Below are positions 4,783 through 21,193 of a stretch of 64,000 nt of DNA, in pieces. Within the stretch, counting starts at the first letter, position 1; every line of letters starts with the position of its first letter. The position numbers and the translations under genes are program-made. Source of the DNA: a virus; IMG/VR virus record IMGVR_UViG_3300032286_000547, positions 46,148 through 110,147 of that record. One strand, 5' to 3'. The notes beneath the pieces were generated by a model. That model ran no database searches. It saw only the letters and a list, made by a program, of their open reading frames with translations, and had not been told where the DNA came from.

Positions 4783-4784
4783 TT

Positions 4785-5135: not shown

Positions 5136-5139
5136 TATC

Positions 5140-5451
5140 ATGGCAAATTTAAACCCTACAAACGTAATTACTTATCCATTAAATTGGGAAGCAAAATCTA
5201 TAGAGATAACAGTTAATGCATTTCCATTATTTCCTCAAACAGTTGAGGTATTTTGGAAACTAATTGGAGATTCAAATTCATTCAGTGGCTCTACAACAAT
5301 ACCAAACAGTGTTGTATCTCAATGGGGTACAGATGACGCTGTGATACAATCTTATGTATTACAACAATTAGGATTGTCAGAAGCATTAGTGCCTACAGTT
5401 AATGAACCAGTTATTACAGAAGAACCGACAACAGAAGAACCTATAGTATAA
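5140..5451 (+). CDS. Hypothetical protein, possibly fibre chaperone/accessory
   Basis: 103 aa ORF tightly packed between fibre genes. Confidence 0.45.
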   Translation: MANLNPTNVITYPLNWEAKSIEITVNAFPLFPQTVEVFWKLIGDSNSFSGSTTIPNSVVSQWGTDDAVIQSYVLQQLGLSEALVPTVNEPVITEEPTTEEPIV

Positions 5452-5452
5452 T

Positions 5453-7417
5453 ATGGCACTAAAGTATTGGTATGTAGCAGGTAATGGAAGTTCAAACTTC
5501 AATACAGCAGGGGTGTGGTATAATGGACCTGGAGGCACAGGTGGCACTACAACTACGCCTACTGCTGCTGATGATGCTATTGTTAATGCTGCTTCAGGTA
5601 GTGGTACATTAACTATTACAGCTACTGCAACTATTAATAGTTTAAATACTAAGACTTTTACAGGGACATTAGCTGGAACAAACGCACTAAATATAACAAC
5701 TACAACTTTACCAAGTGATAATTATGTACTTCAATTAGGAGGAAATCATACATATAGTGGTACTATAACTTTTAATACTACACTTGATCTTGGTTCATAT
5801 ACTTTATATATAAATTGTAATGGTATATTCCATAAAGGAAATATGACATTTAATTCTACAACAGTAAATGCTGAATGGTATAGTTATGATGATATTAATA
5901 GTAATCTTGTACCATTAAGAATGACAGGTGCTTTTGGATTAACAAAAGGATATGTTGATTGCAATGAATTATATGCAGCAAGTATTTCTACATCTAATTC
6001 AAATTTTAGAGGAATTTATGTAGATGATATTTATTTATCAGGATCAGGAACATTATTAGTTGCAACAACTCAAACAGGATTAAGTTGGAATTTAACTAAT
6101 TCAATTCATCTTACAAATACAACAGCAACTGCTAAAGCAATTTCATTTTCAGGAGTTGCTTATGCTCCAAATTTATATATAGAAGGTTCAGGAGCAAGTT
6201 CTACAACTATAACTGTTGCAGTTGCAACAGATGATTATCCAAATGTAATAGTATCAAAAACACAGGGAACATTTCTTTTTGGTACAAGTTATATAAGAGA
6301 CCTTACATTTATAGAAGGATCTACAGTTACTTGGGCAGGAACATCAAATTTAACAGTTCATGGGAATGTTACTTTGTGTAATTCTATGTCTATAACAACA
6401 AGTAATGCTTTAATATTTCAAGGACCTAATTTAGGTGTTGATAATCAAACTTTAACTACTTTTGGAAAAACATTTACAGGAACTTTATCTATTAATGATA
6501 CAGGTTATAATTCTTTAAATCTTACTATAAATGGAAATTATTTAACTACAGGAACTATAACTATAACTGCAGCAAATATAGTAACTTTTAATAATTCTAT
6601 ATCATCAAGTAATTCAATAAGTATAAATGGTTCTTCAACAGGTGCATTTCCAACTGTTGATTTTAATGGTGGAATATTAACAGCTACAACTTTGTCTATA
6701 ACAGATGCATTTGTTTATTTAAATAACAGCTTTTTATCAGGTGGATTATCTTTATCTACAGGTTCATTACAGCTTCTTACTAATTCTGTACATAGTTTTT
6801 TCACATTTACATCATCTTCATCTACTAATGTTAGGTCAATTTTCTTAGGTAATAATACAACTATAAATATAAGAGGAAATGTTGCAAATAGTTGGAATAC
6901 TTCTCAAGGTTTAGCACAAGGTGTTTTACTTTTTAATGCAGGAACATCAACAATAAATATAATAGATAATACATCAAGTGCAGCTGTTAGTTTTCAAACA
7001 GGAGGAGTTAGTTTTTATAATATTCATTTAAATAGGTCAAATAATTCAATAAATCCTCCTCAAATTACTTTTACAGGAGGTTTGTATTGTGTAAATTTTA
7101 GAGACTTTACTGTAATGCCCGCAGGAGTTTTTAATTATATTGTTTTTGGTGGTGGAACTCCTATAGTTTTTTCTGATACATTTCAAGTTGGTAATGACAT
7201 TAATCCAACTTATATACTCTCGTCAAGTACAACTCCTGTTACTATAACTAAACTTAATCCAGGATTAGTTATATGTCCAAGATTATCACTTTATAATATA
7301 AATGCTTCTCAAACAAATACTTTTTATGCAATAAAAGGTTCTACTGATAATGGTGGGAATAATCAATGGATATTTAACACACCACCAAGAAGATTAAGTT
7401 CTCTTGGTGCAGGATAA
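5453..7417 (+). CDS. Beta-helix-like, Thr/Ser/Asn/Gly-rich adhesin or tail spike
   Basis: 654 aa, repeated short strands such as GTLTIT and GNLTING, very few charged residues; resembles autotransporter passenger repeats. Confidence 0.6.
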   Translation: MALKYWYVAGNGSSNFNTAGVWYNGPGGTGGTTTTPTAADDAIVNAASGSGTLTITATATINSLNTKTFTGTLAGTNALNITTTTLPSDNYVLQLGGNHTYSGTITFNTTLDLGSYTLYINCNGIFHKGNMTFNSTTVNAEWYSYDDINSNLVPLRMTGAFGLTKGYVDCNELYAASISTSNSNFRGIYVDDIYLSGSGTLLVATTQTGLSWNLTNSIHLTNTTATAKAISFSGVAYAPNLYIEGSGASSTTITVAVATDDYPNVIVSKTQGTFLFGTSYIRDLTFIEGSTVTWAGTSNLTVHGNVTLCNSMSITTSNALIFQGPNLGVDNQTLTTFGKTFTGTLSINDTGYNSLNLTINGNYLTTGTITITAANIVTFNNSISSSNSISINGSSTGAFPTVDFNGGILTATTLSITDAFVYLNNSFLSGGLSLSTGSLQLLTNSVHSFFTFTSSSSTNVRSIFLGNNTTINIRGNVANSWNTSQGLAQGVLLFNAGTSTINIIDNTSSAAVSFQTGGVSFYNIHLNRSNNSINPPQITFTGGLYCVNFRDFTVMPAGVFNYIVFGGGTPIVFSDTFQVGNDINPTYILSSSTTPVTITKLNPGLVICPRLSLYNINASQTNTFYAIKGSTDNGGNNQWIFNTPPRRLSSLGAG

Positions 7418-7421
7418 TAAT

Positions 7422-7455
7422 AAAAAAGAAGCTCCTAACTAAGGAGCTTTTTTAT
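7422..7455. terminator. Bidirectional intrinsic terminator
   Basis: AAGCTCCT-aacta-AGGAGCTT flanked by A and T runs between convergent genes. Confidence 0.75.
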
Positions 7456-10401
7456 TTCATCTATCACCATCTCTGGTGTTATGCTCTTCTGACATTCAAA
7501 CTGTCTCTCTGTTCCTTTATGAACAGGACACCAGTCCCAATCTCCTTTATCAAATTTATACTGTGGATCATTCCAACAACCGTGGCATACTCGGTTGTTT
7601 GTCACTCTATGGCATTTAAATTCGTGATCTGCATCAGTGAAGTTAGCAATCATTATCACTGGCACATCTAGTGCCCATGCTAACCAACTAAGCCCACTAG
7701 ATAGTCCTATAAAGAATCTACTATTGTATATAACACTCATGGTTGCTGACATACTTTTATCAGACAATGGTTGACAGTTATCAAATGGATTATCTTCTAG
7801 TGATGTATTGATAACTTTGTATCCTTCTCCATGTAAGTAGTTAATCACTTCTTGCCATGCTTCTCTGGTCCAGAACTTACATCCTGCTGTACTATTAGTA
7901 GCTATAGCAACTTGTCTCATTGCAAGATGCACTCTGCTGTTTACAATCCTTGGTTTGATTTCTTTATAAGGAAGACCTAGAATGTTTGTAGCTGTCTGCT
8001 GTAATGGTATAGTGTTTGGAAGAACAGGTTCTTTGTTTTCATTATAGAACCAACCAATCTTATACATTGCATAGATGTTATTCACTGTAGCACCTGGCTC
8101 AACAAACTCTAGCATTGGATATTCTTTTTCAAACAAGAAGTTCTTGAATGTACTAACAATCACTTCACAGTTGTGTGCACATCTAAACTCTTCTACGTAT
8201 GGTATCCAAGCTATTGTATCTCCTAAAGAAGAACTATCGAATGCAATATAAACTCTTCTACCATCTAGATTTAAAAGTTTATCATACACCTTCTCTCCAT
8301 CTTTATACACCACAGTCTTCCACTGTGTATAATACTCTCTGTTTAGTCTTATCCAGTGATTACATTTGATTGTGTCACTATGAACCAACACATCACCATC
8401 ATAAAACTCTACACGAAAGTCACTAGTAGATGTTCCTGTTATCTCCAAGAATGGTTGTCCAACGAAGTGTTGTGTTATATTCCAATCATTTACACTGTTT
8501 TTGTGTGGAATAACGGACATTGCTTTCTTATATAGATTCAAATTATTCTTAGCAAAGAATATAGATGGATTATCAAGTGGCATAGGATAATTGTTAGGAG
8601 ATGTTAACATATCTCTTATCTGTGGTACTATCATAATAGGGTTTAGGTTTCTTATATAATCAGTGAACATGTCATAATATTGAATAAGGTTTCTAGCTAG
8701 TATAGGTTTGCCATAACTAATGGCTTCTCTAAGAACAAGAGGATTACATTCCCATGTAGAGTTAAACATAAACAAGTCTGCAGCTTTCATAAATAAATCT
8801 GTATCATTTCTCTCTCCCCATACAGTAACATTATCAGGAACATTGTTCATTAATGGTTCCCAATAGTCTTTGAAGTTCCCAGCTTGGTTACCTACAAAGT
8901 GAAACTCTACATCTGGTATCTGTCTAGCTGCTTCTAATCCTTCTCCCTGGTTCTTTCCTCTGGTCCAAAGTCCTATGTTTACAACATGTTTCTTTGTTAC
9001 ATCCATTCCAAGAGTTATTTGTGCAGCAGTTTGTTCAGCTTTACTTACATGAGTATAATCTATAGGATATTCAATCACTTCTTTATATCCATCAAGGTTA
9101 GCAAATGTATCTACATGATAAGGTGTACAGAATGCATATGCATCTGGTGTAAACATCTTAGTCTCTGGTACAAAAGAAACATCATGACATGTCTCAACTA
9201 TTCTATATGTTCTATCATCAGCATACAGTCTAGTGATCATCTCTCTATCCATTCTCTCAGACATTTCATCTATATGAATGATGTCTGGTCTGAATTCATT
9301 TATGATGCAAAATAGTTCTGTTTTATCCTCATATAATGTGAATACAGGTACAATATCTAAGATTTGGTTCCTTTGTACAACAAAATCCACACTATAACAT
9401 TGATATTCCACTACAATTATTTCTACATCTGTATAATCTTTCAATGTTTGTATTCTTTTTAGAAGAAACTGAGGCATACCACCTGTTGACAGATGGGGAG
9501 CAAGGAACATTATTTTAATAGGTTTAGACATTTTAGACATTAGTTTAGACATTGCTACAGGATCTTTTTCTCCATGTAAGAAGAATAATTGATCCTCACT
9601 AGCTGGTAACTTAAACCATGATTCTAAATAACTTCCCCAGTTATCTTCATTATATATTCTATCAAACTTATCAAGGCTAGCATTAGTGTATATATAAGGA
9701 AGACTATCTAAGAACTTATGTTTCCATAACAACACATTCACTATTGTCTCTTCGTGATAGGGAGCATAGTATTGTGGATCTTTTAGTATCTTTGGATGAT
9801 TGCACATCCAACTCCACTCATTTAAGAATGGTATAGTGTTCTGACCAGCTACAAAATAACCAGTTTGTCTATACTTGTCTCTAATAGATTGATCTACATT
9901 AAACAATTCACATGCTGGAGCTTCAAGACTCTTGTGTAAGTTCTCTCTTCCAATTACAACACCTCTACCATTCATTAATAGATAATCATATATACCTTCT
10001 GTGAAATACGGAAACTCAGAATCTGTAGGATAGTAGTTGAATATTCTATCTACATACTTAGTTGCTACACTGTCAGAATCTACATAACAGATTGTCTCAG
10101 CAAATCTTTCAAGAGCATCTTTAACTATAAGAGGTCTTTGTATTAATAGATTGTATATTCTAGAATCATCTCTATCTATATAAGATGATTTTGGTACATC
10201 TTCTACATCACATTTCCAGTAGACAGTGTTAGCTCCAGGAACCTCACTATAATCATTTAACATGTACACTGTAATTGGTACATCACTAAACTGTTGAATA
10301 CTTTCTACAGCCATACATACAGTGCTGTAATAAGATGCATTTGCATATAAAACATACATTCTATCTGCTTTTCTATTTGTGTGTGTAAAACTAGAAGACA
10401 T
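7435..10401 (-). CDS. Three-domain glycosyltransferase: GT-A (DSD) + GT4-like GT-B + TibC/Aah-like protein O-glycosyltransferase
   Basis: YVDSD motif; STGG...KNQ...ADLF..S.WE.NPLVLREA..YGKP; SLGDTIAW plus CHGCWND...WCPVH...FEC iron-finger-like cysteines. Confidence 0.8.
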   Translation of the reverse strand: MSSSFTHTNRKADRMYVLYANASYYSTVCMAVESIQQFSDVPITVYMLNDYSEVPGANTVYWKCDVEDVPKSSYIDRDDSRIYNLLIQRPLIVKDALERFAETICYVDSDSVATKYVDRIFNYYPTDSEFPYFTEGIYDYLLMNGRGVVIGRENLHKSLEAPACELFNVDQSIRDKYRQTGYFVAGQNTIPFLNEWSWMCNHPKILKDPQYYAPYHEETIVNVLLWKHKFLDSLPYIYTNASLDKFDRIYNEDNWGSYLESWFKLPASEDQLFFLHGEKDPVAMSKLMSKMSKPIKIMFLAPHLSTGGMPQFLLKRIQTLKDYTDVEIIVVEYQCYSVDFVVQRNQILDIVPVFTLYEDKTELFCIINEFRPDIIHIDEMSERMDREMITRLYADDRTYRIVETCHDVSFVPETKMFTPDAYAFCTPYHVDTFANLDGYKEVIEYPIDYTHVSKAEQTAAQITLGMDVTKKHVVNIGLWTRGKNQGEGLEAARQIPDVEFHFVGNQAGNFKDYWEPLMNNVPDNVTVWGERNDTDLFMKAADLFMFNSTWECNPLVLREAISYGKPILARNLIQYYDMFTDYIRNLNPIMIVPQIRDMLTSPNNYPMPLDNPSIFFAKNNLNLYKKAMSVIPHKNSVNDWNITQHFVGQPFLEITGTSTSDFRVEFYDGDVLVHSDTIKCNHWIRLNREYYTQWKTVVYKDGEKVYDKLLNLDGRRVYIAFDSSSLGDTIAWIPYVEEFRCAHNCEVIVSTFKNFLFEKEYPMLEFVEPGATVNNIYAMYKIGWFYNENKEPVLPNTIPLQQTATNILGLPYKEIKPRIVNSRVHLAMRQVAIATNSTAGCKFWTREAWQEVINYLHGEGYKVINTSLEDNPFDNCQPLSDKSMSATMSVIYNSRFFIGLSSGLSWLAWALDVPVIMIANFTDADHEFKCHRVTNNRVCHGCWNDPQYKFDKGDWDWCPVHKGTERQFECQKSITPEMVIDEIKKLLS

Positions 10402-10420
10402 AGTGTTGATTTTTAAGAAT

Positions 10421-10428
10421 CAAAGGTA
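10421..10428 (-). promoter_or_regulatory. Bacteroidota -7 element (TACCTTTG) for the inverted glycosyltransferase
   Basis: TAnnTTTG about 20 nt upstream of ATG 10401. Confidence 0.55.
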
Positions 10429-10449
10429 TGAAAAATATATTTATCTTAT

Positions 10450-10512
10450 GCTATATTATGCTGAAAATATATTTTTACCTATTTATTATTCCAAATATAA
10501 ATTTTATATTTG
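10450..10512 (+). promoter_or_regulatory. Putative late promoter of the lysis operon
   Basis: GCTATATTAT 10450-10459 plus TATATTTG 10505-10512. Confidence 0.55.
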
Positions 10513-10583
10513 CTTGATATAATGGTATAATCATTGCATCGTTGCATCTATGCATTCGTGTGCTATACTAATCCTTAATCCTT

Positions 10584-10901
10584 ATGGAAAACGCATTTGA
10601 ATCACAAGTTGAAAAAGAATTGAAAAGCATGGATCAAAGACTTTACGATCTAGAGGAGAAAATGACTTCTATAGATAGCAAATTAACACAAGTAGTGGAT
10701 GCAATATTAGGAAATGCTCTTACTAAAACAGGAGGATTTGTTGCAGACATAACTGAGCTTAAAGAAAGAATCAAAGATTTAGAACACAAACTTGAAAAGC
10801 AAGAAGAGTTCAAGAAACGATTTACCTGGACTGTAGGTATAATCATAGGAATAGGTGTCTTATTACAATACGCATCTACACTATATAGAAACATTAGATA
10901 A
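10584..10901 (+). CDS. Coiled-coil membrane protein (holin/antiholin-like)
   Basis: Heptad-rich, single C-terminal TM segment; first gene of lysis cassette. Confidence 0.5.
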   Translation: MENAFESQVEKELKSMDQRLYDLEEKMTSIDSKLTQVVDAILGNALTKTGGFVADITELKERIKDLEHKLEKQEEFKKRFTWTVGIIIGIGVLLQYASTLYRNIR

Positions 10902-10902
10902 A

Positions 10903-11106
10903 ATGAGTAGAGGAGAAAAAATAGATATTTTTTTAAACAAATGGGTGAGCAGAAAACTCACTGTATTTGTTGTAGCATCTTTTGGCCTTTTTTCTGGAAA
11001 TCTAACTTCAGATAATTGGGTAATTTTAGCAACTGCTTATATATCTATAGAAGGTGCTACGAACATAGTTGAGCGTTTAATGAAAGCTAAAGGAACTACA
11101 GTATGA
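10903..11106 (+). CDS. Putative holin
   Basis: 67 aa from ATG 10903, SRKL followed by two hydrophobic segments, upstream of endolysin. Confidence 0.65.
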   Translation: MSRGEKIDIFLNKWVSRKLTVFVVASFGLFSGNLTSDNWVILATAYISIEGATNIVERLMKAKGTTV

Positions 11107-11429
11107 TCTTAGCAAAGTTTCTTGATAGTCTTGAAAAACAATGGCTTGCTGTAGTGGTAGCTGCATTGTGGCTATTCAGCTACACTGCTAACCAAGAGAA
11201 GAATAATGCTTTGCTTGAACAAACTAAGAATCTAGAGATACAGATTTTAGAACTTGAAAAGAAAGATGATGCATCTGCTAAGGTGATCGATAGCTTGTCT
11301 AAAATAGATACAGTGATTGTAAACAGAATCAAAACCATTAAACAAAAAGAATATGTACAGATTAAAGTTATTGATAGTCTTCCTATTAGTGGGCTTCAAC
11401 AGTATTTCACAGACAATTACAAAAGATAG
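11103..11429 (+). CDS. Putative inner-membrane spanin
   Basis: N-terminal TM then coiled coil; overlapped by next gene. Confidence 0.55.
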   Translation: MILAKFLDSLEKQWLAVVVAALWLFSYTANQEKNNALLEQTKNLEIQILELEKKDDASAKVIDSLSKIDTVIVNRIKTIKQKEYVQIKVIDSLPISGLQQYFTDNYKR

Positions 11430-11823
11430 CGTTGTTGTTTTAACAGAAAACCAAGCTAGAGCTGTTGTTACTGATCTTGTACGTTATGATTTTGCTAAAC
11501 AAATCATCAAAGAACAAGAAGCTAGAATCAAAAACTTTGAGAAGAAGGAGCTTGAATTCAAGAATCAATTAGATATAAAAGATTCTATCATCTTCCATCA
11601 AAAAGAAATGATTGATATCCATAAAGAGATCATCAAGAGTAAGAAACCTTTTGAATTTCATGGTTATGCTGGTGTTCAATCAACAAGATTTACATTAAGA
11701 GAACCTACATTATATACAAACCTAATGCTTGAATTCACAAGATTCAATGTAGGAGCTCAATACTTTGTACAACCTAATAACCCTCCAGGTTATAGTGTTG
11801 TTCTAGAATATAAATTATTTTAA
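11353..11823 (+). CDS. Putative outer-membrane spanin partner (non-lipoprotein)
   Basis: Signal peptide, coiled coil, C-terminal beta strands ending EYKLF; 77-nt overlap with previous gene. Confidence 0.5.
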   Translation: MYRLKLLIVFLLVGFNSISQTITKDSVVVLTENQARAVVTDLVRYDFAKQIIKEQEARIKNFEKKELEFKNQLDIKDSIIFHQKEMIDIHKEIIKSKKPFEFHGYAGVQSTRFTLREPTLYTNLMLEFTRFNVGAQYFVQPNNPPGYSVVLEYKLF

Positions 11824-11834
11824 ACCAAATAATA

Positions 11835-12263
11835 ATGGTAACAAGTGCACAGTGCTTAAAGAAGTGGGGTGATCCTGCTTTAACTGAGAACGAATTAAAA
11901 TATATGACTGTATGGGATGTACCTACTAATTTAGAGATAGGTGTTATTCCAAAAAAGTTATACTGTAATAAAATAATGGTAGCTCCTCTATCTCAAGCTT
12001 TCACAAATCTTATAGATAGAAACTTTGTTAAAGAGTTGAAAACATTCGATGGATGTTTCAATGTAAGAAGAAAGAGAGGACTAACTACAATGTCTTTACA
12101 TTCCTGGGGGATAGCAATTGATGTTAATGCTGCTTGGAATGGATTACATAAAACTCCACAACTATCTGCAGGATTTGTAAAATGTTTTACAGATGCTGGA
12201 TTTGAATGGGGAGGTACGTGGAAAAGAAAAGATGGAATGCACTTCCAATTAAAATCTATATAA
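11835..12263 (+). CDS. Endolysin, M15 family Zn peptidase
   Basis: R...SLHSWGIAIDVN, FEWGGTW, DGMHFQ motifs. Confidence 0.9.
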   Translation: MVTSAQCLKKWGDPALTENELKYMTVWDVPTNLEIGVIPKKLYCNKIMVAPLSQAFTNLIDRNFVKELKTFDGCFNVRRKRGLTTMSLHSWGIAIDVNAAWNGLHKTPQLSAGFVKCFTDAGFEWGGTWKRKDGMHFQLKSI

Positions 12264-12264
12264 C

Positions 12265-12402
12265 ATGGCAAAAGTAACCAACATAGTAGAGAAGATATCT
12301 AAACCTAAAATCAGTAGACCAGGTGTACATGCTAAATCTCAAACATCTAACTTGAAATCATCTAAAAACTATAAGAAATTATATAGAGGACAAGGTAAAT
12401 AA
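12265..12402 (+). CDS. 45-aa basic phage protein ending YRGQGK
   Basis: Translated by hand: MAKVTNIVEKISKPKISRPGVHAKSQTSNLKSSKNYKKLYRGQGK. Confidence 0.65.
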   Translation: MAKVTNIVEKISKPKISRPGVHAKSQTSNLKSSKNYKKLYRGQGK

Positions 12403-12465
12403 CTAAATTAGTTATTTTAATTTTGGTGAAAATCACTTACTTATGGTGAAAAACACTTATTTTTG
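12397..12465 (+). promoter_or_regulatory. Promoter with palindrome and tandem repeats
   Basis: AAATAACTAA-a-TTAGTTATTT 12397-12417; TGGTGAAAAwCACTTA at 12424 and 12444; TATTTTTG 12458-12465. Confidence 0.55.
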
Positions 12466-12488
12466 TATAATAAATAAAATTTAAAGAA

Positions 12489-13502
12489 ATGGCTATACCA
12501 TCTAGACAGATAGGCTGGGGAACAGAAGAAAATCTGTTATGGCAAATCTCTAAGCAATTAGAGAGATTAACACAGGTGACAGGAAATAGTGTAAGTGGAT
12601 CTCAAACACTTGCACAAACACTTGTTACTGGAAACAATACAGGTGGGAATGATATACTATTAAATAGTACTGATGCAATACAGTTAGAAAATAATTCATC
12701 ACTTAGAAAAGGAACTTATGATTTTGGTCAAGGTGGTGGTGTTTCACGTATATGTGGTGTAGACTATGAAGATATGTGGCAAGGTGGAATTAGACACGTA
12801 TTTGATTCCAATGGATTTATAAGAAATTCAACTAACTGCTTTAATATTATACCTAATTCAAGTTTTGATGATACTTTAAGATTTAAAATTGGTTCATTTT
12901 GGACTTTGGATGATGGTACTACTTATGAATGTACTAATGCAACAACAGGAGCTGCTGTTTGGCAATTATATTCTACACCTCCTAAGTATAAGGTGTTCAC
13001 AGCTTTATTAACACAGAGTGGAGGAAATAATCCTGACACTATACCAGGCAACGGTGGAACGCTTGATGCTGGATATACTTATTTAATAATAGACAATCCA
13101 GATAATTATGATTTAACATTATATGGTGCACCAAATAACTTACCTGGAACATATTTTATTTGTGCCAATTCTATTCTTAATCTTCCTTATACTAACAGTC
13201 TACAAATAGGAGTTAATTATGGTGCTCCAGTAGCAACTGTATTAGAGAACACTATTGGGAATGTTTGGTTTACTTATGATGGTGTTGGTAACTATTCAGT
13301 TAAATCTAGTAATTTATTTTTAGAAAATAAAACAACACTAAGTATTAATCTAATGGGTGATGATGTAGGTACTGGTTATATATGTTTAGGATATATTAAT
13401 ACTACAGAATCATTAGGTATTACAACAGGTACAGAAATAGGCGGCTCACAAGACAATGTTTTAACATGGAAAACACCAATAGAAATAAGAGTTTATAATT
13501 AA
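12489..13502 (+). CDS. Virion appendage protein with N-terminal module A
   Basis: MAIPSRQIGW...NLLWQISKQLE shared with 13513; beta-rich C-terminus. Confidence 0.55.
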   Translation: MAIPSRQIGWGTEENLLWQISKQLERLTQVTGNSVSGSQTLAQTLVTGNNTGGNDILLNSTDAIQLENNSSLRKGTYDFGQGGGVSRICGVDYEDMWQGGIRHVFDSNGFIRNSTNCFNIIPNSSFDDTLRFKIGSFWTLDDGTTYECTNATTGAAVWQLYSTPPKYKVFTALLTQSGGNNPDTIPGNGGTLDAGYTYLIIDNPDNYDLTLYGAPNNLPGTYFICANSILNLPYTNSLQIGVNYGAPVATVLENTIGNVWFTYDGVGNYSVKSSNLFLENKTTLSINLMGDDVGTGYICLGYINTTESLGITTGTEIGGSQDNVLTWKTPIEIRVYN

Positions 13503-13512
13503 TAAATAAAAC

Positions 13513-14295
13513 ATGGCAATACCTAGTAGACAAATAGGATGGAGTGGAAGAGCTAACTTACTTTGGCAGATATCTAAACAATTAGAATATCTAACATGTG
13601 TAGCAGCTGGTGGATGTACAACTACTACATCTACTACCACTATTGCTCCTACCACCACCACAACAACTACAATTTGTGTAGACTTTATTAATAGTATTGT
13701 TATTTCTGGTGGTTCATACACTGCTGCTAATGGAACTTATACAAGAGATACTCCTTCAGGATCTTTTACATTAACAGGTGGAGGTGGTGCTATATTCTTT
13801 GGTGGAGATGCTTGGTATATTTTTAATGCTACAATTGGAAATGTTGCAATAAATACATCTACACTAGGAACTGGAACATGGGAACCTTTTGCTCCTGGAA
13901 ATTCATCAGGAATTACTGCAGAGTATTTTTATTATACTTGTCCAACCACTACAACCACAACTAGTAGTAGTTCTTCAACAACTTCTACTACTAGCACTAC
14001 TACAACTGTAGCTCCAACTACTACTACAACAACTACAGTTATATATTCATTTAATGTTACGCAATGTTGTGGAGGAACTGGTATTACAGTATATTCAGCT
14101 TCACCATCAATAACAGTAGGTGCATATTTATATACAAACTCAGGACTAACTGTTCCGTTTGTTAATGAACAAGGTGACGGTGCTCCTAACAGAATTGGTT
14201 TTGAGAATACTTGTGATGTTTCTTTTAGTGACGCATTTTTTACATATAATACAGGATACGTTTATACCATTAATGGTGGCGGTGGTTGCGACTAA
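13513..14295 (+). CDS. Thr-rich (mucin-like) virion appendage protein, module A
   Basis: Same N-terminus as 12489; two poly-Thr/Ser tracts. Confidence 0.6.
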   Translation: MAIPSRQIGWSGRANLLWQISKQLEYLTCVAAGGCTTTTSTTTIAPTTTTTTTICVDFINSIVISGGSYTAANGTYTRDTPSGSFTLTGGGGAIFFGGDAWYIFNATIGNVAINTSTLGTGTWEPFAPGNSSGITAEYFYYTCPTTTTTTSSSSSTTSTTSTTTTVAPTTTTTTTVIYSFNVTQCCGGTGITVYSASPSITVGAYLYTNSGLTVPFVNEQGDGAPNRIGFENTCDVSFSDAFFTYNTGYVYTINGGGGCD

Positions 14296-14337
14296 TAACA
14301 AACAAAAAATAAATAATTATATTAAACCAACTACATT

Positions 14338-15354
14338 ATGAAAGATTTAAAATTTGTACAAGCTTGCCCAAGCGATATTTATTATACATGGCAAGTGAAC
14401 CTTTGGATGGAAAGCCTAAAAGAAATAGGACACTCTGACAAAGCAATCAATCTTATATTCACTCCTAAAGGAAGAGAGAATAGAGACAAATGGAAACAAA
14501 TAGAAGACCTATATCCAGAAGCTGAGTTTCATTACTACGAGGATGAGGATGATTTAAATCGATTAATTGGAATCTATATTCCTGTACTTAGACCATATGT
14601 TCTTTGGAAACATTTCAAGAAGCATCCAGAGCTAAGTGATAAAGCAATCTTCTATTGTGACTCTGACATTCTATTCATGAAAGATTTCAATGTAGATCAG
14701 TTCTTAGAAGATGAAGTGTGTTACTTATCAGATACAAATAGCTACATCAATGCTAAATATTTTGATAGTAAGGTGAATCAAGTGTTACCAGAGAAACTGG
14801 AAGAATATAAAGGTAGAGACATCCTTGCAGAGATTGCAAGTGTTGTAGGAATAAGCAGAGAAATAGCTGAGGCTAACAATGATCATTCAGGAGGAGCACA
14901 ATATCTATTAAAGAATGTAGATGGTGACTTCTGGAGTAAGGTGATGAATGATTGTATTCTTATTAGAACCTATTTACAAACAGTGAATAGAGAATTCTTT
15001 AAAGATGAAAATGCTGGATACCAAAGTTGGTGTGCTGATATGTGGGCTGTTCTTTGGAACCTATGGTTTAGAAACCAAGAAACAAAGGTGGTACCTGAAA
15101 TGGCATTTGCATGGGCTACAGATCCTATATCAAAGCTTGATACACATACAATCTTTCATAATGCAGGAATAGTTTCTGAAACAGGAAATGGTTACCCAGC
15201 CTTTTACAAAGGCAAATATCACATGGGTACTGATCCAACAAAAGATCCTAACCTAGATATGATTCTTAATGACGAACAATCAAAAAAATATTGTACTTGG
15301 TTCTATGCAACTAAACTGAATGAAATTAAAAACAAATATAACCTAAACTATTAA
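14338..15354 (+). CDS. GT-A fold glycosyltransferase resembling plant peptidyl-Ser/Hyp O-glycosyltransferases (GT96/GT95)
   Basis: YYTWQ, YIPVLRP, FYCDSDILF (DxD), GGAQY, WCADMWA in the order expected for that group. Confidence 0.65.
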   Translation: MKDLKFVQACPSDIYYTWQVNLWMESLKEIGHSDKAINLIFTPKGRENRDKWKQIEDLYPEAEFHYYEDEDDLNRLIGIYIPVLRPYVLWKHFKKHPELSDKAIFYCDSDILFMKDFNVDQFLEDEVCYLSDTNSYINAKYFDSKVNQVLPEKLEEYKGRDILAEIASVVGISREIAEANNDHSGGAQYLLKNVDGDFWSKVMNDCILIRTYLQTVNREFFKDENAGYQSWCADMWAVLWNLWFRNQETKVVPEMAFAWATDPISKLDTHTIFHNAGIVSETGNGYPAFYKGKYHMGTDPTKDPNLDMILNDEQSKKYCTWFYATKLNEIKNKYNLNY

Positions 15355-15370
15355 CCATAAATTTTAAACA

Positions 15371-15634
15371 ATGGGAAGCATTAATACAAGACCTTTAAAG
15401 GCTTATGTTAGATTCGATGGATCTGGCAGAATAGTTGCAGGAAGTTTAGTTCTGAGAAAGAACAAACCTAAAGTTGGTAAATGGAAAGAGATTCCAGCAT
15501 ATGAGTGCTGTAATCCTACAACCACTACTACCACTACAGCTGCACCAACAACAACAACAAGTACAACTGTAGCTCCAACTACCACAACCACAACAACTGC
15601 GAGAGCAACAACAACAACTACAACAACAAGATAA
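15371..15634 (+). CDS. Thr-tailed small protein, N-terminal module B
   Basis: LKAYVRFDGSGRIV...ECCN then about 38 aa of mostly Thr. Confidence 0.6.
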   Translation: MGSINTRPLKAYVRFDGSGRIVAGSLVLRKNKPKVGKWKEIPAYECCNPTTTTTTTAAPTTTTSTTVAPTTTTTTTARATTTTTTTR

Positions 15635-15636
15635 TC

Positions 15637-16113
15637 ATGGCTAGAAGTAATAACAATAATAAGCTTAAAGCTTTTGTACGTTTTGATGGTTCAGGACGTA
15701 TTGTACCAAGTAGTTTAATTGTACAAGCATTTAAACCGAAGGTAGGTAACTATCAAGAAATAGATGCTAAAGAGTGTTGTAATTACACAACAACTACAAC
15801 AACAACTTTAGCACCAACAACAACCACTAGTACTACGGTAGCCCCTACTACAACTACAACTACTACTGTAGCTTTAATTCCACTTACTTTTACAGTTTGT
15901 TGTGGAGAAGCTGAAGAAACTTTATATGCAACATCAAGTCCAGTAGTGCCTGGTGTTTATTTATATGAAAACGCGGCTGGTACAATTCCTGCTGTTTTAA
16001 GCGGAAATGTTGTGATCGGTGAAATCGATTGTCCTTTTGAAGAAAATATAGGAATATCTACAAATGAATCTGGATTAGTTTTGAGTATTACAAACCCTAT
16101 TAACTGTGCTTAA
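15637..16113 (+). CDS. Thr-stalk protein, module B plus head domain
   Basis: Paralogous N-terminus to 15371; C-terminal domain similar to that of 13513. Confidence 0.6.
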   Translation: MARSNNNNKLKAFVRFDGSGRIVPSSLIVQAFKPKVGNYQEIDAKECCNYTTTTTTTLAPTTTTSTTVAPTTTTTTTVALIPLTFTVCCGEAEETLYATSSPVVPGVYLYENAAGTIPAVLSGNVVIGEIDCPFEENIGISTNESGLVLSITNPINCA

Positions 16114-16132
16114 TAATTAAAAACTAAATAAC

Positions 16133-16546
16133 ATGGCAGTAAAATCCTTGTTTCCAGATGACATGATGAAATCATCATCTGAAGGCTTAACGTTAGACAG
16201 TATAGCTGCAAAGCTTACTTACTTTCATGAGCAATTACATCTGCTACATTGGCAAACAACTAGCTATGCAGAGCACCAAGCTCTAGGAGCATTGTATGAT
16301 TATGTACATGATTTCAAAGATGGTGTGGTAGAAAAGATTATGGGATATACAGGTAAAAGACCTGGTCTTTATAAGATAGAACCTTTAACTAATTGTACAC
16401 CTATGTCTTGTGTTGAAGATCTTTGTAACTTTGCAAGCAATTTAAAAAGATATGGTGATATGAATAGTTATCATGATATTGGAAATCTTGCAGATTCACT
16501 ATCTGGAGAAGCAGCTAAAACTAAATATCTATTAACATTGTCATAA
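16133..16546 (+). CDS. Ferritin/Dps-like four-helix protein (DUF5856-like)
   Basis: LHWQT.SYAEH.AL..LYD....D..VE..MG and terminal KYLLTL. Confidence 0.75.
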   Translation: MAVKSLFPDDMMKSSSEGLTLDSIAAKLTYFHEQLHLLHWQTTSYAEHQALGALYDYVHDFKDGVVEKIMGYTGKRPGLYKIEPLTNCTPMSCVEDLCNFASNLKRYGDMNSYHDIGNLADSLSGEAAKTKYLLTLS

Positions 16547-16831
16547 ATGGAGATAAACAGAAAACATTTTCCTAAAGTGATGCAAGATAACGATGAAGTC
16601 TTTCTTGCACACTTAGAAGGTGTAATAAGTTCTGTTGATGAATTATGTAGTCTAGAGATTACAAAGAATACAGATAGCTATAGATTCAGAATAGCAGCAA
16701 GTCATCCTATGTATAACAACATGCTTATAGAAGAGATTCTTAAGTTCTGCAACATGTTTAAGATAAGAGTGGACATGAGCAAATCAATAACAACATCAAG
16801 CGTTATTACGTTTGAAATAAACTTAGAATAA
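16547..16831 (+). CDS. Hypothetical protein
   Basis: 94 aa ORF abutting neighbours. Confidence 0.55.
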   Translation: MEINRKHFPKVMQDNDEVFLAHLEGVISSVDELCSLEITKNTDSYRFRIAASHPMYNNMLIEEILKFCNMFKIRVDMSKSITTSSVITFEINLE

Positions 16832-16832
16832 T

Positions 16833-17402
16833 ATGCCTACATTTATTAAACCCACTCTTTGGGAAAAAAGAACTAATCCTGCACAAGGATATAGAGGAGA
16901 ATTGAATCTTGATCAATTTGTAGAAAGCAAAATTCCTGCTCCTACAAGTCTTTATTCTGCTACATTTTTTGATACCACTACTCAAACTACTGGTGGAGTT
17001 ACAACAGCTAACCAAGTTGCAATCAATTCAACACAGTCAAATACTGGTTTTACATTAGCAAACAATACAATAACAGTTAATAACACTGGGATCTACTGTT
17101 TTATTGCTAACATGCAACTTTCATTTACTGGTGGATCTTCAAATCTTAATGTAACTGTATGGTATGCTGTAGACAATGTGATTGTTCCTAATTCAGCATT
17201 TACATTCACTACATCAACAGCCCAAAATGATCAAACATTAGCAGCTATAACAGATACAATAGCATTAACAGCTGGACAATCTTTAAAATTTTATTGGTGG
17301 TCTGGATCTGCAGGGATGAGACTTTTAACAACTGCTGCTGGAACTAATCCAACAAGACCTGCATCACCTTCTGTAAATATTTCCATCTTTAATGTTGGAT
17401 AA
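16833..17402 (+). CDS. C1q/TNF-like domain virion protein
   Basis: Similar to the central domain of the 2245 fibre (F...TQ...G.Y.F...Q...PA.PSV). Confidence 0.55.
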   Translation: MPTFIKPTLWEKRTNPAQGYRGELNLDQFVESKIPAPTSLYSATFFDTTTQTTGGVTTANQVAINSTQSNTGFTLANNTITVNNTGIYCFIANMQLSFTGGSSNLNVTVWYAVDNVIVPNSAFTFTTSTAQNDQTLAAITDTIALTAGQSLKFYWWSGSAGMRLLTTAAGTNPTRPASPSVNISIFNVG

Positions 17403-17453
17403 TTAAAAAACATTTTTTACTTTTACTGATTAATAATAAAAACCAATTACATT

Positions 17454-17684
17454 ATGGCACAGTATGATCCTTCAAAAAGGTACACATGGACTCCTGAAGA
17501 CACATTCACATTAACAGGACAACAGTTTGGATTATTTCTAAACACAGTTAGAGCTTACTTATCATCAGAAGAAGCTGCAAGGTTTCAATTAATGATGCAA
17601 GCTAATCAGGCAATTGAAGAATTAATGATTAAAGGTGTTGAAGCTGATATCATTAAAGAGGTAGAAGCTCCTACAGCAGAATAA
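17454..17684 (+). CDS. Hypothetical protein
   Basis: 76 aa, A-rich leader. Confidence 0.6.
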   Translation: MAQYDPSKRYTWTPEDTFTLTGQQFGLFLNTVRAYLSSEEAARFQLMMQANQAIEELMIKGVEADIIKEVEAPTAE

Positions 17685-17740
17685 TTAACATACCTGTTGG
17701 GTGACGAAAAACAGGTGTTCTCGAACAAAAGCACTTCTCT

Positions 17741-17947
17741 ATGAGAATATACGAACCAAAGAATCGAATAGATGTTATAACACCCAAGGGAGATGGGATG
17801 ATTTGGTTAGTGACTGATTATGGTCATGAAACTGATACCATCTATACAATTATAATTAATCAAACAGGTGAGATGTGGCAATACACTCACAAAGACATTA
17901 TTGTTAAACCTAATATAACATTTAAACGCTATGGCAAAAATGATTAA
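17741..17947 (+). CDS. Hypothetical phage protein (VxTPKG...DYG...D...GE.W pattern)
   Basis: 68 aa ORF. Confidence 0.55.
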   Translation: MRIYEPKNRIDVITPKGDGMIWLVTDYGHETDTIYTIIINQTGEMWQYTHKDIIVKPNITFKRYGKND

Positions 17948-18503
17948 AAGACCTATAAAAAAGGCACAGAATGGATCTAAAACAGATGCTAACACTAAAA
18001 TTCAAAAGCTTAAATTAGATAATAAGTATAATAAGATTTATGCTGCTATGAAGAAAGATTCAACAGATGTTTCTAATAAAATTACATTACCTATTACTTA
18101 TAAGTCACTTAGACAAGAAACTGGTAAATCTCCTAGTGCAGAAGAATTACGTAAAAGAACATCTGAATTAAATAAAAGCTTAGTTAAACAAGGAAAAAAA
18201 GATAAAGATATTAGAAAAACTTTTGGTAATTTAGATGCTAAAGGTAGAGCTGATAATGCAATGATGACAGATAAAATGAAGAACGGTAGTGCTGTTAAGA
18301 AAAAAATGAAGAACGGTGGTTCTTTATCTGGTCTTAAAGCTTCTACTAAAAGAGTTGGTCCTTCAGATGCTAAAGGTGCTTGGACTAAAGTGCAAGAGAA
18401 AACATTAAAAGGTGCTAAAGGTAAAGCTAAACTTACAGCAGACAAACAACTTGGTGCTACTAAGATGGCCAAGAGAGGCATGAAGATTTCTAAAAAGAAA
18501 TAA
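17931..18503 (+). CDS. Lys-rich basic protein
   Basis: Recurrent KKAQNG/KMKNG motifs. Confidence 0.65.
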   Translation: MAKMIKRPIKKAQNGSKTDANTKIQKLKLDNKYNKIYAAMKKDSTDVSNKITLPITYKSLRQETGKSPSAEELRKRTSELNKSLVKQGKKDKDIRKTFGNLDAKGRADNAMMTDKMKNGSAVKKKMKNGGSLSGLKASTKRVGPSDAKGAWTKVQEKTLKGAKGKAKLTADKQLGATKMAKRGMKISKKK

Positions 18504-18506
18504 GTC

Positions 18507-18953
18507 ATGAGAACTATTAAAAAAGGTCAAAAAGGAGCTATGTTAAAGCAAGCACCTAGGACAACAATAGAAGAAATCACTAGTACAAAACTAAAAGATG
18601 TTCCAAGAAGAGCAATTAATCTTGGTAAAAGATTAATTAATAATACTATTAATGATGTAAAGAATGCTACAGTGGGAGATGTTGCTAAATCATTAGTACC
18701 AACTGGTGTTAGTAAAGCTACTAAAAGATCTAATAAAAAACCAGATCGTGTATTAGCTGCTATGGCTAAAAAGAACGGTGGTAAAGTGGCTAAAGCTAAA
18801 GATGGTAAATGGATGCAGAAAGCTGCAGCTTCTATCAAACGTAGAGGAACTGCTGGTAAATGTACACCAATCACCAAACCTGGTTGTACTGGTAAGGCTA
18901 AGGCTCTTGCTAAAACATTCAAGAAGATTGCTAAATCTAATAAGAAGAAATAA
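18507..18953 (+). CDS. Lys-rich basic protein
   Basis: MRTIKKGQKG, KKNGG, AKDG motifs. Confidence 0.65.
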   Translation: MRTIKKGQKGAMLKQAPRTTIEEITSTKLKDVPRRAINLGKRLINNTINDVKNATVGDVAKSLVPTGVSKATKRSNKKPDRVLAAMAKKNGGKVAKAKDGKWMQKAAASIKRRGTAGKCTPITKPGCTGKAKALAKTFKKIAKSNKKK

Positions 18954-19621
18954 TGTCTAAGTTAAATCCTCAGAAAGCTACAGCTTATGTAGGCCCTGGT
19001 GTACTACGTAAAGGTGGTAAAATAACACCTGTTCCTAATGGTCCTCTTATTAAAAAGAAAGGTCCATATGCAGGAAGCACGTTAAAATCTGGTGGTAAGA
19101 TTAAGAAAGCTCAAGGTGGTGAATATCTTACAAAAGAAGGCAACACCTACACTTCTACTAAGAAAGTGAACACTAAGAATGGTCCTAGATACTATCAAGG
19201 AAAATCTCCTAACATGTCTTTTGCTACAGAAATAGCTTCTGAAAAAGCACGTAAAATTAATGATTCTATTCCTAAAGCAAAACTTAGTGCTAGAGCACTA
19301 GAAGTAATGAATAATAAAAATGGTGGCACTATGAGAAAGAAAGCTATGATGGGTAATAGTATATTTAAAAACAATCCTATCTATGAAAAAACTACCAAGG
19401 CTCGTGGTATGATTGGTAATATGATGGGTATACCAGGTAAACCAATTGTTAAGAATGGTGGTATGTTAAAACGTGCTGATGGTTCATATTCTAAGCGTGG
19501 ATTATGGGATAACATTCGTGCTGCAGCTAAAAAGAACAAAGCTGCTGGTAAGCCTGGTAAAAAACCTACAGCTGCTATGTTACAACAAGAACGTAAAATT
19601 AAAGCTAAATCTAAGAAATAA
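18953..19621 (+). CDS. Lys-rich basic protein
   Basis: LRKGG, LKSGG, AQGG, NKNGG, VKNGG; C-terminal GLWDNIR module; TAATG coupling at both ends. Confidence 0.65.
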   Translation: MSKLNPQKATAYVGPGVLRKGGKITPVPNGPLIKKKGPYAGSTLKSGGKIKKAQGGEYLTKEGNTYTSTKKVNTKNGPRYYQGKSPNMSFATEIASEKARKINDSIPKAKLSARALEVMNNKNGGTMRKKAMMGNSIFKNNPIYEKTTKARGMIGNMMGIPGKPIVKNGGMLKRADGSYSKRGLWDNIRAAAKKNKAAGKPGKKPTAAMLQQERKIKAKSKK

Positions 19622-19899
19622 TGGCAACTCCTGCATGGCAAAGAAAAGAAGGAAAGAATCCTTCTGGTGGTCTTAATAAGAAAGGCGTAGCATCTTACAG
19701 AAGAGCTAACCCTGGATCTAAACTTAAGACAGCTGTAACCACTAAACCTTCTAAGTTAAAACCTGGAAGTAAAGCTGCTGGTAGACGTAAGTCTTTCTGC
19801 AGTAGAATGTCAGGCATGAAGAAAAAACTTACTAGTGCTAAGACAGCAAATGATCCTAACTCAAGAATCAATAAATCTCTACGTAAGTGGAATTGTTAA
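19621..19899 (+). CDS. Basic phage protein, DUF6321-like
   Basis: GKNPSGGLN.KG..SY....PGS.LK, RRKSFC.RM, LRKWNC. Confidence 0.7.
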   Translation: MATPAWQRKEGKNPSGGLNKKGVASYRRANPGSKLKTAVTTKPSKLKPGSKAAGRRKSFCSRMSGMKKKLTSAKTANDPNSRINKSLRKWNC

Positions 19900-19917
19900 A
19901 CCTATAAATAGTAAACA

Positions 19918-20463
19918 ATGAGAACAATAAAAAAAGCTCAAACTGGAGCTAAAGTTAAAAAACCTGTAACTAAACCTAAAGAAGATAAGTATAAAGGTTT
20001 AGGTGGAGAAATTGGTAGACCTATCTTCTCTGATAAAGAACAAAGAGAAAGAAGAAAAAAATTAGGTCTTCCTACATCAAAAGCTGAAGAAAAAGCTTAT
20101 TACGAAAAAATGCGTAGAGAAGGTGCTAAGAATGGTAGAACCATGAGCAAAGCTAAAAATGGAACATCATTAGGAATGAAATCTGTTAAAGCTGGATTTG
20201 ATAAAAACCCTGGTGTAACAAGAGCTGATATTATTACAGCTGCCACAAAGAAGGCTCAAAATGGTAAAATATTACCTATTAAAAAAAGTAAAGTAAGAAG
20301 TAATCCAGCATTTGAGTTAGAATATCAAAAATTCAAACATAAACAAGATATGGATAGAATGAAACTTGATAAAGAAAGAAAAGCAAAAGAAGCATCTTAT
20401 CCAAAATCAAACAAAGCTAAATCTGGTTCTACAGTTAAAAAATGCAAATATGGCTGCAAGTAA
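19918..20463 (+). CDS. Lys-rich basic protein
   Basis: MRTIKKAQTG, AKNG x2, KKAQNG, AKSG, CKYG. Confidence 0.65.
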   Translation: MRTIKKAQTGAKVKKPVTKPKEDKYKGLGGEIGRPIFSDKEQRERRKKLGLPTSKAEEKAYYEKMRREGAKNGRTMSKAKNGTSLGMKSVKAGFDKNPGVTRADIITAATKKAQNGKILPIKKSKVRSNPAFELEYQKFKHKQDMDRMKLDKERKAKEASYPKSNKAKSGSTVKKCKYGCK

Positions 20464-20617
20464 ATCAATGACTTCTGGTAAAGCTAAGAAGAGTGGTAAG
20501 CCTAGAATGGCTCCTAAGGTTGCTCCTCCTAATCCAATCAATGGGAACTATATGAAGGAAGCTGGAGACTCTGGTACCAAAAGACCGTTATTCAAAAGAA
20601 AACGTATATCAAAATAA
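20450..20617 (+). CDS. Small basic protein (55 aa)
   Basis: ATG 20450 MAASKSMTSG...; last gene before terminator. Confidence 0.55.
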   Translation: MAASKSMTSGKAKKSGKPRMAPKVAPPNPINGNYMKEAGDSGTKRPLFKRKRISK

Positions 20618-20618
20618 G

Positions 20619-20645
20619 AAAGCCCCTTGATGGGGCTTTTTTTAT
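20619..20645. terminator. Bidirectional terminator at the convergence of the two gene blocks
   Basis: AAAGCCCC-ttgat-GGGGCTTT plus T run. Confidence 0.8.
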
Positions 20646-21193
20646 TTAACTATAATAAGAAGTTTGTTATGATGTGTCTGGTAGAATTCCTTACAAGGAT
20701 AGTTTAGAGCTTTGATCTCTTCCATCATTTTATGTTCATCTAACTGTGCAGCATGTAAATCTTCTATGATGTATATACCACCTTCTTTTAGATATGGATA
20801 CAGAGTTTTGAAACTTGTAACTATATGCTCACCATAATGTGATCCATCATCAACAATAAGATCATAATCTGCTCCATAAGTTTTGATGCATTCTTCTAAA
20901 TGCTCAGGATTGTTTTGATCTCCAATGAATACAGACACTCCTTCTGTCTCAAAACTCTTAGCTTCTGGATTGATATCATAACCTATTAGTTCAATATCAG
21001 GAAAGTATTCTTTCCACAACTTAAGTGATGCTCCAGGAAACCTAGGATCTGCTACACCTATCTCTAACATCTTCACATGTCCTTTAGATAGTTCATCTAA
21101 TAATTCATGGTAAAACACTGTATAACCATGACCATAATTCATTGTACCTTTATCTGTACCTATTCTATTTGCTATTTCTGTTAATCTGTCCAT
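20642..21193 (-). CDS. Class I SAM methyltransferase, sugar O-methyltransferase-like (MycE/TylE-type motifs)
   Basis: TDK....H.Y, LEIGV, SL..W..YFP, GDQ, DDGSH, GG.Y.IED. Confidence 0.75.
   Translation of the reverse strand: MDRLTEIANRIGTDKGTMNYGHGYTVFYHELLDELSKGHVKMLEIGVADPRFPGASLKLWKEYFPDIELIGYDINPEAKSFETEGVSVFIGDQNNPEHLEECIKTYGADYDLIVDDGSHYGEHIVTSFKTLYPYLKEGGIYIIEDLHAAQLDEHKMMEEIKALNYPCKEFYQTHHNKLLIIVK

Follow-up and report, generated by a model that had tools for sequence, protein, structure and literature searches.

A crAss-like phage glycosyltransferase of an unnamed family is genetically linked to poly-threonine tracts, its probable acceptors

A complete 110,147-bp virus genome with direct terminal repeats (IMG/VR record IMGVR_UViG_3300032286_000547) encodes, at positions 14,338–15,354 of the 64,000-nucleotide stretch that we analyzed (the window, record positions 46148–110147), a protein that is, by its structural model, a glycosyltransferase (GT) of the GT-A fold. 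Genes for this enzyme and its homologues are tied to genes encoding poly-threonine (poly-Thr) tracts, and we conclude that this soluble, metal-dependent GT-A enzyme probably glycosylates Thr and Ser residues of such tracts on structural and appendage proteins of the same phage. What the computations show directly is the fold, a motif of catalytic type, the absence of a transmembrane segment, and a link to Thr tracts that is both statistical and co-variational; comparative evidence strongly supports a peptidyl-Thr tract as the acceptor. An earlier note on this DNA had proposed a cytoplasmic peptidyl-Thr glycosyltransferase related to the plant GT95 and GT96 families; the functional part of that proposal is strongly supported by the GT-A fold, the DxD motif, the lack of a membrane segment and the linkage to tracts, while the family assignment was not confirmed.

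The open reading frame (ORF) is real and lies exactly where the earlier note had placed it, on the + strand with an ATG start and a 338-residue product, and it carries all the motifs listed there: YYTWQ at residue 15, YIPVLRP at 80, YCDSDILF at 106, GGAQY at 185, and WCADMW at 231. These motifs are not due to chance, because their residues are conserved across 54 homologues of 30–49% identity, in which Y80, D108, D110, Y136, F257, H274, and K291 are invariant and G185, G186, Q188, W199, Q229, and W231 are nearly invariant. The suggested absence of a signal peptide also holds, as the maximal 19-residue Kyte-Doolittle hydropathy is 0.89 and the N-terminus is not signal-like; the same scan, together with the compact globular model, gave no transmembrane segment. 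At the family level, the protein matches phrog_4417, annotated as 'unknown function' (E 5.2e-55, residues 5–321 versus profile positions 2–287 of 293), and an exhaustive HMMER search found 778 homologous clusters at E<=0.001 and 271 at E<=1e-30, counted at the 50% identity level. Searches of Pfam, NCBIfam, and PDB sequences returned no family or GT match, even at lenient thresholds. Longer members of the family are fused to GT2, GT6, GT25, a DXD sugar-binding region, or methyltransferases, the multi-domain architecture expected for glycan-building enzymes.

The AlphaFold2 model, built from the homologue alignment, is compact and globular (mean predicted local distance difference test score (pLDDT) 96.8, predicted template modelling score 0.93) and consists of one Rossmann-like alpha/beta/alpha domain that matches solved GT-A enzymes in structure. 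D108-S-D110 follows strand E103–107 and is invariant in four alignments of homologues. The invariant H274 and K291 come in the order expected for the C-terminal His of GT8 enzymes, the third metal ligand, and for the Lys that contacts the diphosphate; from invariance and order, D108, D110, H274, and K291 are predicted to be the metal and diphosphate residues. The nearest solved folds are of the GT8/GT24 type (glycogenin, Skp1 alpha-galactosyltransferase, LgtC, the UGGT catalytic domain, and GlyE of the pneumococcal serine-rich-repeat pathway). LgtC and WbbM are among the top structural matches, which are GT8 or GT8-like, and GlyE was matched as 5gvv. The nearest solved relatives are retaining enzymes in which the metal is bound by a DxD motif together with a His; for several of them the substrates are proteins. 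Within a viral structure library, uncharacterized members of the family itself rank first (an uncultured phage protein with a template modelling score of 0.81 and Lactobacillus phage LP65 Orf49 with 0.72), followed by GT8-type giant-virus enzymes.

The link to Ser/Thr-rich genes, on which the earlier proposal hinged, extends to homologues and was found by co-variation, by distance decay, and in cultured phages. Co-variation was assessed at 27 loci retrieved via homologues of the phiFL1A major tail protein, not via the GT. Twelve of these Enterococcus-phage loci have a C-terminal Thr tail on the tail protein and the GT gene 0–10 bp downstream, the other 15 have neither a Thr tail nor a GT within 4 kb, and discordant loci number zero (Fisher's exact test by hand, 1/C(27,12), about 6e-8, uncorrected for phylogeny). 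The two states are interleaved by tail-protein identity, with tail and GT at 100, 96, 83, and 66% and neither at 87–79% and 67–65%, implying several independent gain or loss events. Tail and GT together form a clean ~1 kb insertion that separates the core of the tail protein from the chaperone gene, so that the GT is the only gene arriving with the Thr tail.

Distance decay was measured at 160 IMG/VR loci, 80 from the phage's own lineage (65–95% identity) and 80 from a distant branch (about 35–45%), with a tract defined as [TS]>=6. Tract density is 1.0–2.0 per kb up to 1 kb from the GT versus 0.04–0.17 per kb at 3–10 kb, a 10–40x difference, and within 2 kb the tracts on the same strand as the GT outnumber those on the opposite strand by 548 to 1. 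A tract-bearing ORF lies within 2 kb of the GT at 76/80 own-lineage and 45/80 distant-branch loci. In the distant branch all 45 are upstream of the GT and 41 directly adjacent, and the upstream proteins are typically 400–2,600 residues long, with pure T/S windows and small Cys-containing modules. Tract-bearing ORFs either match PHROGs of tail, fiber, and virion proteins or carry an annotation as a major tail or structural protein. The same arrangement recurs in cultured phages of different genera, where the ORF directly upstream of the GT has a Thr tract in nine of nine inspected (Table 1); two complete genomes that have no adjacent tract encode Thr runs elsewhere.

These results bear on whether the acceptor is a protein at all. 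The best-known roles of glycosyltransferases in phages are serotype conversion and the modification of DNA (review PMC12619734), and LgtC and WbbM, which are lipo-oligosaccharide and O-antigen enzymes, appear among the top folds, so the enzyme might act on host wall polysaccharide, teichoic acid, lipopolysaccharide, or phage DNA, with its link to Thr tracts incidental. We regard this as very unlikely: perfect co-variation with an adjacent Thr tail would be unexpected for a DNA- or envelope-modifying enzyme, and the gene belongs to late structural blocks, shares its strand with the tract genes at the ratio given above, and encodes no membrane segment.

Within the window, a Thr tract was taken as a run of seven or more Thr, and all 11 such tracts fall in three ORFs around the GT gene: 13513–14295, 15371–15634, and 15637–16113 (4 + 4 + 3). 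The first two are the immediate neighbors, whose poly-Thr nature the earlier note had recognized correctly. In 13513–14295 the tracts form two pairs of poly-Thr/Ser stretches, at 13618–13671 and 13945–14037. All tracts use a mix of ACA, ACT, and ACC codons like other genes, which means that they are kept up as protein sequence and do not represent DNA repeats prone to slippage. Tracts are also not confined to the neighbors of the GT, which qualifies the earlier description, because a second block of eight poly-Thr/Ser ORFs lies outside the window, right after the terminal repeat (record 2310–20782). Its proteins reach 768 and 2,030 residues, and several match tail-protein, tail-fiber, and virion-structural PHROGs. 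Altogether the genome encodes eleven Thr-tract proteins, mostly in the structural block.

Downstream of the GT, a basic anchor of ~47 residues is conserved throughout the lineage with 18 invariant positions. Behind it stand either 1–4 units of T7–8 plus xAP alone, in proteins of 58–90 residues, or variable heads of up to 660 residues. When loci were retrieved via this anchor module, 70 of 71 had the GT, the exception being a short fragment, which is consistent with the link and not discriminating. In an AlphaFold model of the mini-protein encoded at 15371–15634, the anchor forms a small beta-sheet (pLDDT about 85), and no secondary structure is predicted for the tail (pLDDT 45–59). Thr-rich linkers are common in modular fiber proteins, and many of the tract-bearing proteins here are modular, which would suit the idea that the tracts are plain, unmodified flexible linkers and that GT and tract genes simply travel as a mobile module. 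That idea strikes us as highly improbable, since the mini-proteins are made of an anchor and a Thr tail with nothing to link, nothing is linked either by the Thr tails at the C-termini of tail-tube and capsid proteins, and the Enterococcus-phage tail occurs on an otherwise conserved gene only where the GT is present. A protein composed solely of anchor and Thr tail argues instead that the tail is payload.

A second glycosyltransferase, encoded 4 kb from the GT-A gene by ORF 7435–10401, is a probable second component of a glycosylation toolkit. It matches Pfam Glycos_transf_1 at 1e-10 and Glyco_transf_9 at 7e-6, and NCBIfam TIGR04414, whose equivalog cut-off is 200 bits, with 258.3 bits (E 1.1e-76, residues 662–985 versus profile positions 30–374 of 374; 261 bits in the genome-level search). 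Its N-terminal ~440 residues have no family match. A TibC-like gene of this kind lies up to 10 kb from the GT-A gene at at least 26/80 own-lineage and 13/80 distant-branch loci. To our knowledge, a phage-encoded homologue of the BAHT family (bacterial autotransporter heptosyltransferases Aah/TibC, the family of TIGR04414) is unusual in itself. TibC heptosylates the TibA and AIDA-I autotransporters, and Aah/TibC enzymes O-glycosylate repetitive passenger domains in the cytoplasm before export (PMC4358343). They are GT-B/GT9-like and encoded by a gene different from the GT-A gene; this true member counts as a putative partner and a precedent, not a relative of the GT-A enzyme.

The presence of this gene raises the question of which enzyme adds the first sugar. 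GlyE, found among the structural matches as 5gvv, and other GT8 enzymes of the serine-rich-repeat pathway elongate glycans; many fused forms of the family contain several GT domains; and with a TibC-like gene near the GT-A gene in this phage and at 13/80 distant loci, the first sugar on Thr could come from a TibC-like/GT4-like or host enzyme, with the GT-A protein extending the glycan. We find this division of labor unlikely, as the small Enterococcus phages acquire the GT alone with the Thr tail in their ~1 kb cassette, a TibC-like gene is absent within 10 kb at most loci, and it is the GT that co-varies with the tracts.

The kinship of the family was approached from both the GT8/GT24 and the GT95/GT96 side. 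In spite of the shared fold, the phage enzyme differs from GT8/GT24 enzymes in being only 8–13% identical to them and ~80 residues longer, and Pfam Glyco_transf_8 gave no match at E<=1 for the GT-A protein or for 54+41+20 homologues. As for the GT95/GT96 kinship that the earlier note had read from motif order, it went unconfirmed, since the Pfam HPAT profile PF23452 never reaches its curated cut-off of 23.9 bits. At E<=1, this profile does not match the GT-A protein. A threshold of E<=10 still brings up nothing in the phage genome or in 50 further viral records that contain homologues, and the hits in 42 bacterial genomes amount to noise interrupted by in-frame stops. Among 125 family members scanned, 123 lack an HPAT match and two have sub-threshold ones (E 0.013 and E 0.0024); HPAT is the only glycosyltransferase family to recur in two independent member scans. 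The HPAT label is also attached to 10–58% of members in 21 of the 30 nearest named ESM-Atlas clusters, including a bacterial cluster of 282 residues. DUF7164 (PF23741) has no match in the phage genome, and a stepping-stone search from a Myxococcales member yielded 1,658 relatives, the best 120 of which carry no Pfam label.

HPAT enzymes are Golgi proteins with a type II membrane anchor that use hydroxyproline as acceptor and UDP-L-arabinofuranose (UDP, uridine diphosphate) as donor. Like the plant and algal GT95 (HPAT) and GT96 (SGT1) enzymes, which act on hydroxyls of repetitive extended peptide tracts in extensins, the phage enzyme would act on such tracts, here of Thr, and the motif order described in the earlier note is indeed present and conserved. 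A divergent member of the GT95/GT96 lineage, closer to it than to GT8 and still acting on peptidyl hydroxyls, is accordingly conceivable, and the Atlas labels and the two recurring sub-threshold matches point the same way; we nonetheless consider it doubtful. The profile scans just described are empty or noise at the genome level, and no member reaches the cut-off. Unlike the Golgi membrane enzymes of plants, the phage protein is soluble, with no hydrophobic segment that could be an HPAT-like type II anchor (maximal hydropathy 0.89), and its acceptor would be Thr, not hydroxyproline or Ser. Remote kinship with HPAT, as opposed to membership, is possible.

In the mechanism that we propose, the soluble GT-A enzyme would bind a nucleotide sugar via its DxD motif and a metal late in infection, in the host cytoplasm, and would put the first sugar on Thr/Ser hydroxyls of the disordered poly-Thr tracts, probably with retention. 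The phage genome contains no gmhA, rfaE domain II, or NTP_transferase; with these nucleotide-sugar synthesis genes absent, the sugar donors would be host-made. This phage offers eleven candidate acceptors, three encoded by the genes that flank the GT and eight tail, fiber, and virion proteins encoded elsewhere in the genome. The glycosylated tracts might then form mucin-like stalks or brushes on the virion, and the nearby GT4-like/TibC-like enzyme may extend the glycan, add heptose, or make a parallel modification. The glycan could serve to stiffen or protect the stalks, as a hydrophilic shield, or in adhesion. Here we infer the Thr hydroxyl as acceptor, priming as opposed to extension, retention, the donor sugar, and the biological role. 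On a wider scale, we lean slightly toward a widespread 'mucin-type' O-glycosylation of phages, in which a family of peptidyl-Thr glycosyltransferases, possibly of HPAT/SGT1 ancestry, reads poly-Thr tags. Such tags on capsid, tail-tube, fiber, and anchor proteins would give a sugar brush to phages of Bacteroidota, Bacillota, and other hosts, with the family also present in clusters for peptides of the ribosomally synthesized and post-translationally modified (RiPP-like) kind.

Several points weigh against this proposal. Every chemical step of it is one that we infer for all carriers of the family, and the solved or characterized relatives, at <=15% identity, are too distant for their donors or acceptors to be transferred. 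No Thr tract lies within 2 kb of the GT at 35 of the 80 distant-branch loci, none was found within 2 kb of most Bacteroidota chromosomal copies, and adjacency is thus not obligatory; some members probably use other acceptors. In two incomplete genomes no Thr runs were found. Finally, the distance decay could partly stem from the position of the GT in structural modules rich in Thr linkers, a bias that is controlled for by the tail-protein co-variation test.

Copies in bacterial genomes fall on both sides of this question. Those of Bacillota, probably prophages, have the same Thr tail 30–60 bp before the GT. The chromosomal copies of Chitinophaga, Pedobacter, and Sphingobacterium lack a Thr tract and carry a second GT domain as a fusion; several of the Chitinophaga and Pedobacter copies adjoin radical-SAM and LanC-like peptide-maturation genes. 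By gene content, these Bacteroidota chromosomal loci resemble clusters for the biosynthesis of glycosylated, RiPP-like peptides; a precursor peptide was not identified at them. This context points to peptide acceptors but also shows the family to extend beyond Thr tags. In Chitinophaga niastensis (locus L177, 2562–10107) and about 20 other Bacteroidota loci, GT homologues are fused to a Glyco_transf_7C-type domain and adjoin radical-SAM, LanC-like, and GT1 genes.

The closest known parallel is found in mycobacteriophages, where, in the work of Freeman et al. 2023 as cited in PMC12619734, PMC12894461, and PMC12691614, phage-encoded GTs place glycans at the C-termini of capsid and tail-tube subunits in the host cytoplasm. 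In mycobacteriophages, virion glycosylation alters antibody recognition. As in that system, the phage GT studied here is genetically tied to virion proteins, by adjacency and by co-variation, and in phiFL1A, 1706, R9.1, and Staphylococcus phages Thr tails lie at the C-termini of tail or capsid proteins beside the GT. In contrast to it, the present family occurs in Bacteroidota and Bacillota phages ranging from crAss-like phages to Herelleviridae, has no Pfam model, and is associated with a homopolymeric Thr tag as the candidate acceptor. Giant-virus capsid enzymes such as chlorovirus PBCV-1 A064R differ in making N-linked atypical glycans in a eukaryotic virus, and their structural match is weaker than that of GT8. 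In our literature search on poly-threonine tracts and glycosylated phage tail proteins, we came across no paper describing the family or the tract-GT link, and mycobacteriophages were the only experimental precedent for virion protein glycosylation that it found. A study of ten phages reported no glycoprotein staining (PMC12894461); the presence of the GT family in those phages is not established, and the result is neutral. The major tail protein of phiEf11 runs at 28–30 kDa versus a predicted 21.5 kDa, and its authors suspected a modification (PMC5221750). We rejected it as a modified carrier, as phiEf11 has neither the Thr tail nor the GT.

Judged by sequence comparison, what appears to be new is the enzyme family, a recognizable candidate acceptor tag encoded in the genome, and a distribution that is very wide. 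If the proposal is true, virion glycosylation would be common, as the family has hundreds of sequence clusters, and would range from crAss-like gut and environmental phages to dairy phages of Lactococcus and Lactobacillus and to Enterococcus and Staphylococcus phages considered for therapy. It would follow a simple portable code of a poly-Thr tag and one enzyme, with a bearing on phage stability, mucus or polysaccharide adherence, immune recognition, and pharmacokinetics, and the two parts could serve in bacteria as a compact tool for site-directed O-glycosylation. With the 87-residue protein of anchor and tail and with the cultured carriers, the hypothesis is open to direct tests.

Table 1. 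Genes of the window discussed in the text, and Thr tracts next to the GT gene in cultured phages.
Feature	Position	Strand	Details
GT-A glycosyltransferase gene	14338–15354	+	ATG start, 338 aa, soluble; unnamed family (phrog_4417); DSD = residues 108–110
Multidomain glycosyltransferase	7435–10401	-	987 aa; GT1-group (GT4-like) domain ~445–580, Aah/TibC-type O-heptosyltransferase domain 662–985
Candidate acceptor protein	13513–14295	+	260 aa; N-terminal module common with preceding ORF; C-terminal Cys-pair 'CCG' module
Mini-protein, simplest candidate acceptor	15371–15634	+	87 aa; 47-aa basic anchor, then only four T7 blocks with xAP spacers
Paralogue of mini-protein	15637–16113	+	158 aa; same anchor, three Thr blocks, then CCG head module
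Paralogue of 13513–14295 (context only)	12489–13502	+	337 aa; first ~30 residues in common; without Thr tracts
Enterococcus phiFL1A			Upstream ORF: tail-protein Thr tail
Lactiplantibacillus Semele			Upstream ORF: (TTTTTSTTTVKP)n
Chryseobacterium MA9V-3			Thr linker tracts on two upstream ORFs
Lactococcus 1706			orf13 'major structural protein' C-terminus T10; capsid orf10 C-terminus T9
Staphylococcus vB-SscS-F1			Upstream tail protein, C-terminus T9-P
Arcanobacterium TPWB06			Upstream tail protein, C-terminus T9-P
Enterococcus nattely			Thr runs immediately upstream, in unannotated sequence
L. brevis SAC12B			Upstream ORF: (TTVxP)n
Lacticaseibacillus R9.1			Upstream 349-aa protein, C-terminus T7S; another T9 tract ~2 kb downstream

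The phage itself is crAss-like. Its portal is 25–27% identical to the portals of crAss-like, Flavobacterium, and Cellulophaga phages, and the nearest cultured carrier of a GT-A homologue is a Chryseobacterium phage; from the portal similarity and this closest cultured carrier, a Bacteroidota host is likely. The end of the window falls in the major head protein gene.

Further observations concern the tract proteins and their surroundings. In Lactobacillus phage SAC12B, the annotated holin/lysis protein (locus L355, 1686–2303) also ends in (TTVxP)n, so the tags are not restricted to virion proteins. A 'CCG...Y...G.YLY.N' module follows the Thr linkers at both 14038–14292 and 15868–16110, with 37% identity over 41 residues between the two copies, and comparable modules stand at the C-terminus of large Thr-linker proteins encoded upstream of the GT in distant phages (loci L086–L140). 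The products of 12489–13502 and 13513–14295 have the N-terminus MAIPSRQIGW...LLWQISKQLE in common and then diverge completely; in relatives this N-terminus heads proteins of 550 residues or more. Directly after the mini-proteins, at 16133–16546, lies a gene for a DUF5856 / 'starvation-inducible regulator' (Dps/ferritin-like) protein, kept in this place throughout the lineage. Further downstream, at 17931–19621, three tandem ORFs of 190, 148, and 222 residues without a family match encode very Lys/Gly/Ala-rich proteins, which may be basic internal or DNA-binding proteins.

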